Source of the DNA: a virus
DNA: 64,000 nt
IMG/VR virus record: IMGVR_UViG_3300023184_000035
Coordinates: 64,001 to 128,000 of that record
Direction: 5' to 3' (one strand)
How positions within the stretch are numbered: position 1 is the first letter of the stretch; each line of letters begins with the position of its first letter. The position numbers were made by a program, and so were the translations under genes. The notes beneath the pieces are model-generated. The model was not told where the DNA came from. It did not search any database and worked only from the letters and a program-made list of their open reading frames with translations. Positions 12,950 through 18,053 of the stretch are shown piece by piece.

Positions 12950-13741
12950 ATGCGATATTTACTATTGACCCTGCTATTCACAGCAACCACAGCACTAGCA
13001 CGTGAGCCCAGTGTTTACGTATACAACGAAACCTCAGATCAAATTGAATACCAACGCAACTCAACAGAGTATCGGCCCATTGCCAGCATCACCAAGTTGA
13101 TGACAGCCATGGTGGCCCTGGACCACAGCAAAGACCTGTTTCGTCAGCTGCCACTCAACACCACTGTCAAAAGCAACTTGCCACGTGGCACATACACACG
13201 CCAAGAACTGTTTACGGCCATGCTGGTGCGAAGTGACAATGCAGCCGCAGAAACCTTGGCTGGGGACTATCCCGGTGGTAGGAAAGAGTTCGTTTGGCGC
13301 ATGAATCAACAGGCCAAGGAGTGGGGCATCAATGCTGTATTCCGTGACCCCACTGGCTTGGACGCACACAACATGGCCACTGCTGGCGATGTGGGCACCA
13401 TGGCTGGGTATGCCGCGGGCTACTGGGTCATACGTGATGCTAGTGTTAAAAAGACTGTGGCCTTTGAACGCAAATTCAAGAAGCGACTACGCACAATACA
13501 ACTCAACAACACCAATAGACCCATACTAATGGAGTTTGATGAAATCATTGCGTCAAAAACTGGTTTCACCAATCCAGCAGGATACTGTGTTGCCCTGGTG
13601 GTAGAACATCAAAAACAACGGCGAGTAATTGTGGTTCTGGGTGAGCGCAACAAATCACGCAGAATAGACACTGTGCAGGACATCATGTACAATCATGTGC
13701 TGGATCAAAATTTGCAGGATCCAAGTTATATCAATAATTAA
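12950..13741 (+). CDS. D-Ala-D-Ala carboxy/endopeptidase (peptidase S11, PBP7-like)
   Basis: Signal peptide; SITK (SxxK), SDN (SxN), KTG. Confidence 0.92.
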   Translation: MRYLLLTLLFTATTALAREPSVYVYNETSDQIEYQRNSTEYRPIASITKLMTAMVALDHSKDLFRQLPLNTTVKSNLPRGTYTRQELFTAMLVRSDNAAAETLAGDYPGGRKEFVWRMNQQAKEWGINAVFRDPTGLDAHNMATAGDVGTMAGYAAGYWVIRDASVKKTVAFERKFKKRLRTIQLNNTNRPILMEFDEIIASKTGFTNPAGYCVALVVEHQKQRRVIVVLGERNKSRRIDTVQDIMYNHVLDQNLQDPSYINN

Positions 13742-14053: not shown

Positions 14054-14323
14054 ATGAAAGTGATCAAACTCAATCGGCGATTCAAAGTACACAAGGCACG
14101 AGGTCATGAAGTGGCTGTGAAGTTTGTCAGCTATTTTGAGGCCAGAGAGTTGGAACTGGTGTGCCGGGCTCGACTGGGCGAAAACTTCATATGGAACCCA
14201 GAAGGCACCTGGTACGGGTGGTATGGAAAGAAACGCTACGGTCACTATGCCCCACCATATTTCATCTCATTTCAGAAACAATCAGACTTGACTTTTGCGT
14301 TGATGTGCTTGACCAATAAATGA
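14054..14323 (+). CDS. Hypothetical protein, possible LRW-family relative
   Basis: AGGAG RBS; promoter TTGACT-17-TAAACT at 14000. Confidence 0.65.
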   Translation: MKVIKLNRRFKVHKARGHEVAVKFVSYFEARELELVCRARLGENFIWNPEGTWYGWYGKKRYGHYAPPYFISFQKQSDLTFALMCLTNK

Positions 14324-14337
14324 ATCTACTGTATAAT
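14309..14337 (+). promoter_or_regulatory. Early sigma70-type promoter
   Basis: TTGACC-17-TATAAT. Confidence 0.8.
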
Positions 14338-14364
14338 AGCGGTATTGTATTGCAAAGGATTGAA

Positions 14365-14601
14365 ATGAATGACTGGGACCGTAATAACCTGCATTTTATT
14401 CTGGATAGTGATGAGGCTACCCTAGAGGATTTTTATTCCTGGGCCACAGAAGATGACCTGGCCTATGCCCTGAGTCTTGTGCGTGAAGCCAAAACAGAAC
14501 TGCTGTTGCAAGAAGCCGACATCTTGGATGAAATGTTGATCGCGGCCACAGAGGATGATGTGTCAGAAGCCAGCGCCATGTTAAAGCAATTTCAACTATG
14601 A
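14365..14601 (+). CDS. Acidic hypothetical protein
   Basis: AAGGA RBS before ATG 14365. Confidence 0.65.
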   Translation: MNDWDRNNLHFILDSDEATLEDFYSWATEDDLAYALSLVREAKTELLLQEADILDEMLIAATEDDVSEASAMLKQFQL

Positions 14602-14930
14602 GTCATCAGTTTTTGATCATGTGGTGCAATGAAGGTCTTGAGTGTTGCATAGATGTCACAGAAGACCAACAACAACGCATGTGGGAACGGCTCAAAGGTC
14701 AGCCACTTCGTGAGACTGCTATTCCCAACTACAATCATTTGTTGCTACGTGCTAGAGTCAATAGCCAACGCCACTATGAGGTCTATACTTGTGAGGCCAC
14801 AGATGGCATCACTGCTGAGGATATCAAGGAAATGTTCGAAGCCAGCCCGCAGACTGCGGCTGACACAATTCGACGCCTGGGACACTGTTTGCACAGTGAC
14901 CGGGCCACAAACAAGGTGTTGATCACCTGA
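14598..14930 (+). CDS. Hypothetical protein
   Basis: MWCNEGLE...RARVNSQRHYEVY. Confidence 0.7.
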   Translation: MSHQFLIMWCNEGLECCIDVTEDQQQRMWERLKGQPLRETAIPNYNHLLLRARVNSQRHYEVYTCEATDGITAEDIKEMFEASPQTAADTIRRLGHCLHSDRATNKVLIT

Positions 14931-14938
14931 AAGAACGT

Positions 14939-15126
14939 TCCGCTTGGTTCGCGGATACTGTGACCCGCAGGATGAGAAGTGAGGTGACTCTCAAGGGTGG
15001 TACCACTCCTACCGAAGTGGCGCTGGCAATGCGAGAACGGACCCTGTCGGGAAGCGGGTGGAAGGTGTGTGAGATTTGCGGGGCAACCCAAGAGATGATA
15101 CACTAAATTACCGCCGGGGGTCGCAG
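14939..15126 (+). ncRNA. Putative structured non-coding RNA
   Basis: GC-rich intergenic; closing helix ctgtgaccc/gggtcgcag, nested stems, GNRA loops, G-U pairs. Confidence 0.65.
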
Positions 15127-15228
15127 AGCATTTTGAAAAAACATATGGTTGACATACAATTAAAAATGTATTAAACTATAAGCATGTTGGTAACAACATA
15201 CATCAATCTTTTTTTAAGGAAATAAACT

Positions 15229-15441
15229 ATGTCAGATAAAAATTATGTTATTGTTGCACGTATCAAAGGCACACGTCAACACGTAACTTCCTTCTCTAAT
15301 AATGTCAACCAGCGTATCAAACGCCTAAAAGATGACATTCTCAAACAACAGGACGAGCGGTTTAGCATTTTTAAAAATGTTGATAGCAACATGATTGAAT
15401 TTGTGGTTGCACCTGTATCACGTTCTATTGAATGGGCTTAA
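15229..15441 (+). CDS. Small hypothetical protein
   Basis: Promoter TTGACA-17-TAAACT at 15149; AAGGA RBS. Confidence 0.6.
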   Translation: MSDKNYVIVARIKGTRQHVTSFSNNVNQRIKRLKDDILKQQDERFSIFKNVDSNMIEFVVAPVSRSIEWA

Positions 15442-15442
15442 C

Positions 15443-16201
15443 ATGACTAAAACAAACCACCGCGCTCTCGATGTTGAGCTTCAGCGACAACGTTACGGCG
15501 AAAACTCCGAACTGCTTAAAGGATTAGGATACAACACTGATGTCATGAACATCAAACGCATGTCCAAGGACCTAGCAACACAAGACACTTGGCGTTACAT
15601 GCAATCCAAGGATCTTGAAGATCTCAAAGACTGCATCACTGACTATGATTTGTATGAGTGGGCAGTCGGCACACAACTCAACAACAGTGGACTTGTTCTT
15701 GAGTTTGGCACTGCTACGGGCCGTACTCTAAATCAGTTTGCGCATTGGTTGCCGCACAACACCATCTATGGTTTTGACAGCTGGCAAGGGTTGCCAGAAA
15801 AGTTTAACGATTTGCCTGCTGGACACTTTGCACAAGAATTGCCCGAGGTGTTGCCAAACTGCAAACTAATACAAGGTTGGTTTGGTGCAAGACCCGCACA
15901 AGATCAATCCAGTATTCCAGAATTTACTGCGCAAACCTTTGCAAATGAACACAAGGAACCCATTGCATTGTTGCACTTGGATGCTGACTTGTATTCCAGT
16001 ACCAAGACAGTGCTGGATGTGTTTGCAAAACAAATTGTGCCAGGAACTGTGATTTTGTTTAACGAGTATTGGAATCATCCAACTTGGCTCAAACATGAAT
16101 ACAAAGCCTGGCAAGAGCATGTAAAAACTTTTGGACGTGATTACGAATATATTGGATATGCTAGTGATCATCAAGAAGTGGCAATTCGAGTAACCAAGTA
16201 G
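15443..16201 (+). CDS. Class I SAM-dependent methyltransferase, TylF/MycF-like
   Basis: LEFGTATG, GFDSWQGLP, GWF, HLDADLYSST, FNEY. Confidence 0.85.
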   Translation: MTKTNHRALDVELQRQRYGENSELLKGLGYNTDVMNIKRMSKDLATQDTWRYMQSKDLEDLKDCITDYDLYEWAVGTQLNNSGLVLEFGTATGRTLNQFAHWLPHNTIYGFDSWQGLPEKFNDLPAGHFAQELPEVLPNCKLIQGWFGARPAQDQSSIPEFTAQTFANEHKEPIALLHLDADLYSSTKTVLDVFAKQIVPGTVILFNEYWNHPTWLKHEYKAWQEHVKTFGRDYEYIGYASDHQEVAIRVTK

Positions 16202-16326: not shown

Positions 16327-17532
16327 ATGGCAACAGCCACACCTACCTACGCGGCACTGCGCAACGCAAAATACCGCAACACTTCCAGTCACTTTGTGGA
16401 CCTGGTACAACGTCTAAACGACACCATCAACAACCTTCCCAAGCGAGCTCAAACCAATTGGACTAGCAGTCTCAAGAAAGCCATTCAGTCGTTCAAGAAA
16501 AGTTATCCCAACGTAAAAAACTTCAGCGATCGCAAACTGTTTCGCTTGTGCAAAGCCTACGACATTCCACTCATGGACATCATGGTCGATACCACCATGC
16601 AACGTGAGCCGGACTTGCAGTGGATTTTGAAGATCATCACCAACTTCCGTGCCTATCAAGCACAACCCATGCAGGTGTTTGCCACAGCAGATGGTAAATG
16701 GGGTGCCTGGGATAGCCAGCACACTGCCCTGGCCATGTATTTGATTGCAGAACACGCACTGGGCTTGGACTTGACCACTGTCATGGTTCCAGCTAACATT
16801 TACGATGTCACCAGTCGTGCGGACCTGCGCAACTTGTTCATCAACATGAACACCACTACAGGCAAGAACGCTGGTAAAAAGCCCTTGGACATCATTGACA
16901 TCTATGAGCAAATGATCTATGGTGTTGAGGTAGATGGCGTTACTGAACAAGACTGGGTGGATGCGCACACCAAATGGCAACACCTGGCAGCAGGTGGCAT
17001 GTTTGTCACTGCGGAAAAGTTCAACAACACAGATGAAACCGGGGCAATCAGTCGTCTCAATGAGATCATGGACTCCAGTCCAGAAGTGGTGCGCCAATTT
17101 GCCGTGTACGGCAAATATGTGGTTGAGTCTCAAGACACAGTAAAAAATCCTCGCAGTATCAACAGCAAGGAAATTCCCATTATACTTGAGTTTTTGAATT
17201 TGTGTGAACAAAATCAAATCCGATACAGTGATGCAGTGATTGAAGATCTTGCACGACATTGCATTGACTTGTTTGACGCCAATTTTGACGCCAAAGGACC
17301 TTACTGGATTCAAGTACATGACGCCAACGTCAACGCCTACAACAAGGCTCACAAAGGTATCCCCAAGCACATGTGGCCTGAGGCTCCTCGCAATGCCAAG
17401 AACACACCGCAAGGCACTGCATTCTTTTGGCATCAGCTCATGAAGAGCTGGGTGCCCAATCAAGCTGCCGGCTTTAAGTTTCCCAAACAACCATTCAGTG
17501 TGTATACACCTGACGTCAAGGACCTTTACTAA
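16327..17532 (+). CDS. ParB/Srx-superfamily (DGQHR/DUF262-like) protein
   Basis: VDTTMQR...P...WDSQHT corresponds to the QR and DGQHR motifs; AAGGAG RBS. Confidence 0.65.
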   Translation: MATATPTYAALRNAKYRNTSSHFVDLVQRLNDTINNLPKRAQTNWTSSLKKAIQSFKKSYPNVKNFSDRKLFRLCKAYDIPLMDIMVDTTMQREPDLQWILKIITNFRAYQAQPMQVFATADGKWGAWDSQHTALAMYLIAEHALGLDLTTVMVPANIYDVTSRADLRNLFINMNTTTGKNAGKKPLDIIDIYEQMIYGVEVDGVTEQDWVDAHTKWQHLAAGGMFVTAEKFNNTDETGAISRLNEIMDSSPEVVRQFAVYGKYVVESQDTVKNPRSINSKEIPIILEFLNLCEQNQIRYSDAVIEDLARHCIDLFDANFDAKGPYWIQVHDANVNAYNKAHKGIPKHMWPEAPRNAKNTPQGTAFFWHQLMKSWVPNQAAGFKFPKQPFSVYTPDVKDLY

Positions 17533-18053
17533 TGAGCCACTTTTTATACATTCACCCCTGCATGGCTGGTACTCCCAATGTATGGAAAGTTGGTGTTACA
17601 AAAACACCTTACTCAGCAGTGCGTGGTCGTCAAAAGTACACCTGGACCAAGTTCGGTCTGACTGATTTGTACTTTGGTGATCCAGTTGACATAGCTAGAT
17701 TGGAACAAAGAGTCAAGAAAGAATTCAAACACTTGTCAGGCAAAGTACTTCAAGGCTATGGTATGGAACTGTTTCAAATTGACAAAAAAATATTGAAACA
17801 ATCAATCGCGTCCCATATTGAACGTGGTAGTTTGCGTGTGAAACAGTTTGCTCTCAAAGAGCCTTACACTGCGTCCAGTAGTGGGCATTGCCCTTTTGGG
17901 ATTCCTGGTGAGAGTGAAGCTGACCAATGGTTGCATGAGAAATTTGTGAAAATGTTTAAATCTCATCCAACTGGTCAAGTCATAAAAAAACGTGTATTTG
18001 CACGAAACATGTTCCCTGAATTATATGAATACAACTCTTTTAGAACGTCGTGA
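17532..18053 (+). CDS. GIY-YIG (T5orf172-like) nuclease domain protein
   Basis: FLYI...WKVGVT..P..R...LE...ELF. Confidence 0.6.
   Translation: MSHFLYIHPCMAGTPNVWKVGVTKTPYSAVRGRQKYTWTKFGLTDLYFGDPVDIARLEQRVKKEFKHLSGKVLQGYGMELFQIDKKILKQSIASHIERGSLRVKQFALKEPYTASSSGHCPFGIPGESEADQWLHEKFVKMFKSHPTGQVIKKRVFARNMFPELYEYNSFRTS

Follow-up and report, generated by a model that had tools for sequence, protein, structure and literature searches.

A conserved structured RNA of about 200 nucleotides encoded in the tRNA arrays of uncultivated jumbo phages

The window analyzed here, a 64,000-nucleotide stretch of viral DNA that corresponds to bases 64001-128000 of a 148-kb IMG/VR viral contig (42% complete by CheckV), contains at positions 14933-15130 of its + strand a gene for a conserved, multi-stem RNA of ~198 nt, whose putative mature ends were placed from the adjoining tRNA genes in homologous loci. 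Across more than 200 contigs the internal loops of this RNA barely change, and compensating changes preserve its helices. It is very probable that this is a real gene for a structured RNA that acts in trans, and the reading that we favor, with a probability of roughly 55%, is that of a single-copy gene for a stable, independently folding, trans-acting RNA of ~200 nt, a figure in which a scaffold or decoy function is included.

A first-pass annotation of the window had proposed an RNA at 14939-15126. A conserved multi-stem RNA does lie there on the + strand, with the somewhat wider boundaries given above, and its interpretation as a stand-alone, structured non-coding RNA stands, although two of the long-range helices that had been drawn for it are wrong.

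The RNA gene and its surroundings in the window

The RNA locus is richer in GC (0.55-0.60) than the DNA around it, in which the GC content falls to 0.22-0.34 directly downstream, and it is flanked by the stop codon of a 110-aa ORF (14598-14930) and by a σ70-like promoter sequence. The earlier statement that the next gene has its own promoter agrees with the consensus match at this second site (15149-77, Table 1), and a GGTTGAC motif is likewise found 3' of the RNA in three related contigs (L002-L004). Judged from sequence, the promoter-like site upstream at 14309-14337 could drive ORFs 14320-14601 and 14598-14930 together with the RNA; no canonical terminator was found after the RNA on the + strand of the window. 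The neighboring ORFs (14320-14601, 14598-14930 and 15229-15441) match nothing in Pfam or PHROGs. When the whole 148-kb record was searched with covariance model R1, which describes the RNA family, the sole match was at 14930-15130 (210 bits).

Two reading frames that overlap the RNA were considered as coding sequences and rejected, as the 48-aa frame at 14960-15106 is kept in only 2 of 71 homologs and the minus-strand ORF at 14783-15103 is interrupted by stops in 55 of 71. Folded alone, the window RNA has a minimum free energy of -75.6 kcal/mol, with z-scores against shuffled sequences of -2.26 on the + strand and -1.25 on the - strand; since this is only modestly better than the shuffles, the window alone could not settle whether an RNA is encoded here, and it is covariation among homologs, not single-sequence folding, that provides the evidence for a conserved RNA. 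The + strand assigned in the first-pass annotation is upheld by that covariation, by G-U pairs, by the broken reading frames and by the orientation of the tRNA genes in 107 homologous loci, where 1640 of 1640 lie on the strand of the RNA.

Other features of the window were observed in passing. A D-alanyl-D-alanine carboxypeptidase gene (12950-13741, +; Peptidase_S11, E 1e-37) encodes a cell-wall enzyme that is unusual in the early region of a phage. A TylF/Methyltransf_24-type methyltransferase (15443-16201, +; phrog_6608, E 4e-35) has homologs of 71-85% identity in many related contigs (L005-L013), and R1 found no copy of the RNA beside the methyltransferase homologs of L005-L017 or elsewhere in those contigs, which are fragments. 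A 173-aa ORF (17532-18053, +) has weak matches to T5orf172/MUG113 (GIY-YIG-like) and phrog_681 (endonuclease) and is a candidate for a further free-standing homing endonuclease. No Pfam match was found for eight ORFs of 499-1205 aa at 32989-61772 or for a ninth such ORF at 699-2300, which places this phage group at a distance from characterized phages.

Distribution of the RNA family

The ORF upstream of the RNA led to three related contigs, all of which contain the RNA at 75-80% identity with compensatory changes already visible. Three scans of IMG/VR then defined the family: a scan with the 20-nt core GTCGGGAAGCGGGTGGAAGG returned at least 120 contigs; a scan with an independent 3' motif, AATTACCGCCG(N6)GCAGAGCA, also returned at least 120 contigs, of which 57 were new and had a differing core; and a scan for variants at G15113 added 36 more, while a comparable scan for variants at U15109 gave no match. 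In total the family comprises at least 215 viral contigs, with 199 full-length copies and 147 distinct sequences, and several of the contigs are 320-365 kb in length, with one of 525 kb. All of these sets were collected with motifs of the family, so the invariance of a collecting motif is partly circular, a bias that the two reciprocal scans lessen and do not abolish.

The RNA is a single-copy gene wherever copy number could be counted. In five other phage records, 146-347 kb in length, R1 found exactly one copy apiece. Two of these records are 95% and 100% complete; the 100%-complete genome is 346,856 bp long with terminal repeats, and the two near-complete genomes that were checked are 332 and 347 kb. 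Three members of the family were searched with BLASTN against the 50,697 phage records of GenBank, without a match. Among 185,579 species genomes, the 20-mer core occurred only at five Streptomyces sites, but these are partial local matches (mostly 54 nt) with scores of 15-18 bits, and they are therefore attributed to chance in GC-rich DNA. Literature searches by topic and by motif strings recovered no description of the RNA, though an IMG/VR catalog of 8,495 unnamed candidate RNAs (PMC10690425) may include the family. As far as these searches reach, the family was previously uncatalogued and is confined to uncultivated jumbo phages.

Secondary structure and covariation

The fold consists of five hairpins (H1-H5), a loop-to-strand pseudoknot (PK1), a kissing contact between H1 and H3, a long 3' rod and a single-stranded tail (Table 1). 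The final model was counted on A5, an alignment of 100 Infernal-aligned matches (83 distinct sequences), in which 97.9% of the cells are paired, as compared to 78.8% in shuffles and 35-44% when the partners are slid. A covariation analysis of homologs had been suggested in the first-pass annotation, and on A5 both sides change in 35 of the 47 pairs; none of 500 shuffles reaches any of these measures. In an independent MAFFT set, A3, 97.2% are paired as compared to 84.3%.

Table 1. Elements of the RNA and nearby promoter-like sites, in coordinates of the window
Feature	Position	Strand	Observation
Promoter-like site	14309..14337	+	TTGACC-17-TATAAT, 11/12 matches; consensus match only
H1 hairpin, 5 bp, 7-nt loop	14939..14955 (14939-43 with 14951-55)	+	5/5 pairs covary; 100% paired on A5
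H1-H3 kiss	14947..14949 with 14986-88	+	14947-14988: GC 86, AU 51 (147 sequences); GC 35, AU 27 (A5)
H2 hairpin, 4 bp, loop GACCC	14958..14970 (14958-61 with 14967-70)	+	3/4 pairs covary; CG 48, GC 25, others
PK1 5' strand, H2 loop ACCC	14963..14966	+	pairs with 14995-98
H3 hairpin, loop UGAC	14979..14994 (14979-83 with 14990-94)	+	14981-92 and 14982-91 each show 3-4 pair types
PK1 3' strand, GGGU of first GGGUGG copy	14995..14998	+	99.1% paired
GGUA linker, nearly invariant	14999..15002	+	pairing with 15109-12: no covariation, 15 mismatches; pairing with H4-loop ACC: hinted at by one sequence
H4 hairpin, 8-nt loop with conserved ACC	15003..15020 (15003-07 with 15016-20)	+	4/5 pairs covary; 100% paired
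H5 hairpin CGC/GCG, loop with GCAA	15021..15037 (15021-23 with 15031-33)	+	15023-31: CG 62, UA 18
Lone pair U15030-A15037 by H5	15030, 15037	+	UA 71, CG 9, no exception
H6, base of 3' rod	15040..15045 with 15117..15122	+	6/6 pairs covary; 100% paired
Purine-rich internal loop GUCGGGAA	15046..15053, opposite C15115-G15116	+	limited variation: U15047C, C15048U, G15050U/A, A15052G
P-B 5' strand GCGG(G)UG, second GGGUGG copy	15054..15060	+	pairs with 15109-14
H7 C-stem	15065-69 with 15099-103	+	4/5 pairs covary
K-turn	bulge 15070-72; G15073.A15098, A15074.G15097, U15075.U15096	+	NNN-GA / GA signature
P-B 3' strand UACCGC within invariant AAUUACCGCCG	15109..15114	+	invariant in 123/123 sequences selected on the other strand
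Conserved single-stranded 3' tail GCAGAGCA	15123..15130	+	GCAGAGCA in 137/147 sequences; ..AAAGCA in 5
Promoter-like site of next gene, ORF 15229-15441	15149..15177	+	TTGACA-17-TAAACT

Six of the nine helices drawn in the first-pass annotation agree with this model, one had the wrong register and two, both long-range, were wrong. The hairpins tccgc/gcgga, ccact/agtgg, cgc/gcg and gtgtgt/atacac correspond to H1, H4, H5 and H7; the helix gcgg.tg/taccgc is P-B, exactly as had been proposed, and in it the pair 15055-15113 covaries (CG 54, UA 19, AU 9, no exception); and ggg-GCAA-ccc is the local tip (GCAA at 15083-86) of a distal arm whose length after the K-turn varies from 11 to 55 nt among homologs. 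A hairpin was also rightly seen at H3, but its stem is displaced from the gag-GTGA-ctc register first given. Covariation contradicts the closing helix ctgtgaccc/gggtcgcag, as its 5' side belongs to the local hairpin H2 and its 3' side to H6; it also contradicts a pairing of agggt with accct, since the former region pairs with the H2 loop and 15041-45 is part of H6.

Covariation extends to the tertiary contacts. In PK1, C14965-G14996 becomes A-U in three sequences and A14963-U14998 becomes G-C in six, and a second 5' subtype appears, by eye, to form the kiss from ACG with CGU. Within the rod, the internal loop between P-B and H7 reads GAAG/UAAAU in the window and UAUAAU in most homologs. Above it, at 15065-75 / 15096-103, the sequence has the C-stem, 3-nt bulge and tandem sheared G.A / A.G pairs of a predicted kink-turn; of 145 unique sequences, 96 have the NNN-GA / GA signature, that of the window being one of them, and about one-third of the members lack it. 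Many homologs read GUGAUGA ... CUGA at this site, the exact consensus of the C and D boxes. Conservation of the RNA is highest in the rod's two internal loops, in the junction GAUGAGAAGU and in the 3' tail; a pairing partner was found neither for the internal loop GUCGGGAA nor for the tail.

About one in ten members (L040, L041, L042, L045, L073, L083, L110, L111, L129 and L135) carry an extra structured insertion of ~60 nt before H4, between the equivalents of window positions 15002 and 15003, which resembles the expansion segments of large functional RNAs.

Several other pairings were tried and rejected. The first model paired GGUGGUA (14996-15002) with UACCGCC (15109-15), which would make H6 pseudoknotted; this helix is preferred by RNAfold and RNAalifold, is compatible with A3 and scored well, but it never varied, and on A5 it shows no covariation and 15 mismatches. 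With the 3' motif held fixed, only AGCGGGUGG of the core stays invariant. In the divergent homolog L189 the first GGGUGGUA is changed to GGACCUUA and the change is compensated in the H2 loop, so that PK1 is kept (GGUCC with GGACC) and GGUGGUA/UACCGCC is destroyed. In addition, 36 of 36 natural variants in which G15113 is replaced by A or U have C15055 replaced by U or A to match, with the first GGGUGG copy unchanged, which indicates that the partner of UACCGC is the second copy, GCGG(G)UG. Because of the compensation in L189, the G15113 variants and the mismatches on A5, the GGUGGUA/UACCGCC helix was rejected. Pairing of the 5' leader ACGUU with GAUGA (14971-75) had no support, and a pairing of GGU (14999-15001) with the H4-loop ACC, which is invariant and hinted at by L189 alone, was left out of the model.

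Association with tRNA arrays and probable relocation in the lineage of the window

In most contigs the RNA is found inside arrays of 20-28 tRNA genes, and several of the scanned loci also contain a permuted tmRNA and one contains GOLLD. A tRNA gene lies within 12 nt of the RNA in 74 of the 107 loci with full context. Where the tRNA is upstream (56 loci), its CCA ends at the equivalent of 14932, and it is tRNA-Tyr in 29 of these 56; where it is downstream (36 loci), it starts 2-9 nt after the tail GCAGAGCA. The downstream neighbor varies, and can be tRNA-Ala, Ile, Cys, Leu or Thr, another structured RNA or an ORF.

The other RNAs recorded at such loci (L039:10928-11336, L030:3150-3572 and L061:6170-6449) are GOLLD, at 160 bits, and permuted two-piece tmRNAs with the tags ANDEQFALAA or ANDEKFLMAA, a tmRNA type that hints at proteobacterial hosts. 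Two units of L018, one of 79 nt with a 16-bp closing stem (L018:1428-1506) and one of 158 nt with a closing stem of ~20 bp (L018:1509-1666; UUUUUAUAGUCAAGCAUCGAU...), are conserved, strongly folded RNAs that lie directly 3' of the element in many arrays; their joint z is -5.96, and neither Rfam nor ARAGORN calls them.

The lineage of the window differs in its arrangement. ARAGORN found no tRNA or tmRNA in the window or in its 148-kb record, and in the close relatives G001 and G003, 33 and 28 tRNAs lie ~100 kb away from the one copy of the RNA that each carries. In L008-type relatives the homolog of the 110-aa ORF is followed directly by the promoter, without the RNA, so relative to these phages the RNA is an insertion between that ORF and the next promoter. 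Together, the distant arrays of the close relatives and the RNA-less L008-type locus suggest that the gene moved out of an array with every structural feature kept. Relocation with the structure intact speaks for action in trans, and it speaks against the RNA being a spacer, a signal for processing or a regulator in cis.

These arrangements suggest how the RNA may be made. In most phages it would be transcribed within the tRNA array and freed by the nucleases that mature the flanking tRNAs, with RNase P cutting at the 5' end of the next tRNA and with endo- and exonucleases trimming at the CCA of the tRNA before it; where the gene lies in an array, such processing by tRNA-maturation enzymes is probable. 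In the lineage of the window, the gene would instead have come to lie at the 3' end of a small operon of protein-coding genes. Since the RNA of this lineage appears to work away from an array, it can be tested as an isolated gene.

In two loci the RNA gene is associated with a homing endonuclease of the GIY-YIG/NUMOD3 type: L077 has a 178-aa ORF (L077:1481-2017, +; phrog_314, E 2e-14) inserted after H2, and L109 has a remnant (L109:1081-1228, -). In both, a duplicated H1-H2 5' module lies upstream, followed by the endonuclease and then by a complete RNA gene with a variant 5' domain. By analogy with segB in the T4 tRNA cluster, this layout looks like intron-less homing into a conserved target, and as the target of such an enzyme the RNA gene is counted as conserved and under selection.

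Candidate functions

The nearly invariant internal loops of a trans-acting RNA may be bound specifically by a partner. The likeliest partner is a protein or RNA that functions in translation or tRNA metabolism, and the RNA would then serve as an RNP scaffold or as a decoy. That it is such a binding scaffold or decoy rather than a catalyst is a tentative proposal, given somewhat less than an even chance. Invariant internal loops would suit a catalyst, or an RNA that binds a small molecule, equally well. A broader proposal, which we regard as possible but rather doubtful, is that the RNA represents a new functional class (a ribozyme, or an RNA that binds tRNA, the ribosome or a defense protein) that is deployed with the phage tRNAs and tmRNA to seize or protect host translation. 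If so, this compact, pseudoknotted fold of ~200 nt would represent an RNA architecture that is new and has a defined biochemical activity; and if the RNA is catalytic, or binds a translation or defense factor, a part of the 'phage translation island' would be explained by a concrete mechanism.

A ribozyme, acting as a phage catalyst of tRNA processing or RNA repair or as a self-cleaving unit that helps to cut the array transcript, would be in keeping with the complex pseudoknotted fold, with the nearly invariant unpaired segments GUCGGGAA, GAUGAGAAGU and GCAGAGCA, with a length within the size range of small natural ribozymes, and with a position among 20-33 tRNAs and a tmRNA that need heavy processing. 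This is unlikely, however, because there is one copy per genome and not one per junction, because a gene that has moved 100 kb from the array and kept every feature would not be cutting its own array in cis, because the sequence of H6 is free to vary in a way that the P4 helix of RNase P is not, and because no Rfam ribozyme (RNase P, group I/II, HDV-like, hammerhead, twister or others) matches at E<=10. The tRNA-array context also invites the idea of a direct tRNA binder, either a T-box-like sensor of tRNA 3' ends or a decoy for host anticodon nucleases and other tRNA-targeting defenses; tRNA arrays are treated in the literature as putative anti-defense units (PMC12803027). In addition, the two GGGUGG motifs recall the T-box UGGN, and T-box stem I has a K-turn. 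We consider this idea improbable, since both GGGUGG copies are held in PK1 and P-B and neither is free for NCCA in the ground-state fold, which weakens T-box-like binding; moreover, the RNA has no RF00230 or tRNA-like match, no terminator or other expression platform and no conserved anticodon-like loop, and its H1 loop varies freely.

The intergenic position directly upstream of a gene in the window, and the close abutment to tRNAs in arrays, could point to a cis element, one that controls the downstream gene as a riboswitch or attenuator or one that serves the array transcript as a spacer or for its processing; this is very unlikely given that the downstream neighbor changes between loci, that a promoter-like site separates the RNA from the next gene in the window, that the RNA has no expression platform, that it is present in a single copy among 25-33 tRNAs and that its full structure survives relocation. 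Least probable is a degenerate self-splicing intron or another mobile-element RNA retained through a homing endonuclease: the GIY-YIG ORF that interrupts the gene in L077 and L109, the GNRA loops and the pseudoknot are what one would expect of it, but the endonuclease is absent from nearly all loci and its layout fits intron-less homing, the flanks are complete tRNAs and not split exons, there is no group I/II match, and the helix order with P-B is unlike the P3-P7 core of group I introns. Our preferred reading remains a single-copy, trans-acting RNA, with binding to a component of the translation or tRNA machinery as its candidate activity.

Comparison with known RNA classes

The RNA was compared with the 4227 models of Rfam 15, a search also foreseen in the first-pass annotation, at gathering thresholds and then at E<=10. 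The whole window has no match at gathering thresholds; at E<=10 the RNA has no match, as the window region gives only noise outside the element and L018, a typical member, gives one spurious microRNA match. That the search itself works is seen from the tRNA, tmRNA and GOLLD matches that it returned in the arrays. The earlier view that the RNA does not resemble tRNA, tmRNA or RNase P RNA holds: ARAGORN calls no gene at the element in the window, and in other loci it never calls the element though it calls the flanking tRNAs.

RNase P RNA models give no match at E<=10. RNase P RNA is marked by the sequences CR-I to CR-V and by a universally conserved P4 helix; H6, the only long-range helix of the present RNA that is placed comparably, varies freely in sequence. 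A group I or group II intron was considered and rejected, as no Rfam model matches, the flanking tRNAs are complete and the 3' domain is a nested rod with P-B.

In T-box RNAs a UGGN bulge pairs with the NCCA of tRNA, and stem I contains a K-turn. The present RNA shares with them motifs of the GGGUGG type, a connection to tRNA biology and a K-turn within a long irregular helix. It differs in that it has no RF00230 match and pairs both of its GGGUGG motifs internally, in that it is not in the 5' UTR of an amino-acid gene and has no terminator or antiterminator (the place of an expression platform is taken by a tRNA within 2-9 nt or by a promoter), and in that the tmRNA type of these phages suggests proteobacterial hosts. 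The kink-turn that the window RNA and about two-thirds of the members share with box C/D RNAs is a structural motif and not a sign of family membership, and no L7Ae-family protein was found in five phage genomes.

Small structured RNAs are also known from other phage tRNA islands. The Y RNAs of bacteria and phages, which go with Ro60/Rsr (YrlA, RF02553; PMC4201824), are of this kind, but the present RNA lacks a stem that joins its 5' and 3' ends and has no YrlA match; Ro60/TROVE (PF05731) is absent from five phage records, four of them 95-100% complete, in a search in which control genomes were positive. The T4 tRNA cluster offers a closer parallel of arrangement, with rnaC (species 1, 139 nt) and rnaD (species 2, 119 nt), stable RNAs that likewise have no assigned function and lie beside tRNA genes on the same strand, and with the GIY-YIG homing endonuclease segB within the cluster. 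The present RNA is larger, has another fold and occurs in jumbo phages with 20-33 tRNAs; searched against the T4 cluster with filters off, R1 scored at best 5.9 bits, so no homology to rnaC or rnaD was detected.

The RNA equipment of jumbo phages includes tRNA sets that are nearly complete, tmRNA and, as with GOLLD, large orphan RNAs. The present RNA adds a widespread, strongly constrained and single-copy component to this toolkit. It resembles GOLLD (RF02032) and ROOL as a phage-associated, structured RNA encoded near tRNA genes, and GOLLD itself lies in the same array of L039. GOLLD and ROOL are described in a cryo-EM study as much larger RNAs that form homo-oligomeric complexes (PMC12286853), whereas the present RNA of ~200 nt matches neither model and gives no sign of oligomerization. 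With this size and a well-determined secondary structure, it is better suited to probing, to crystallography or cryo-EM and to pull-downs than are the ornate RNAs of 500-800 nt.
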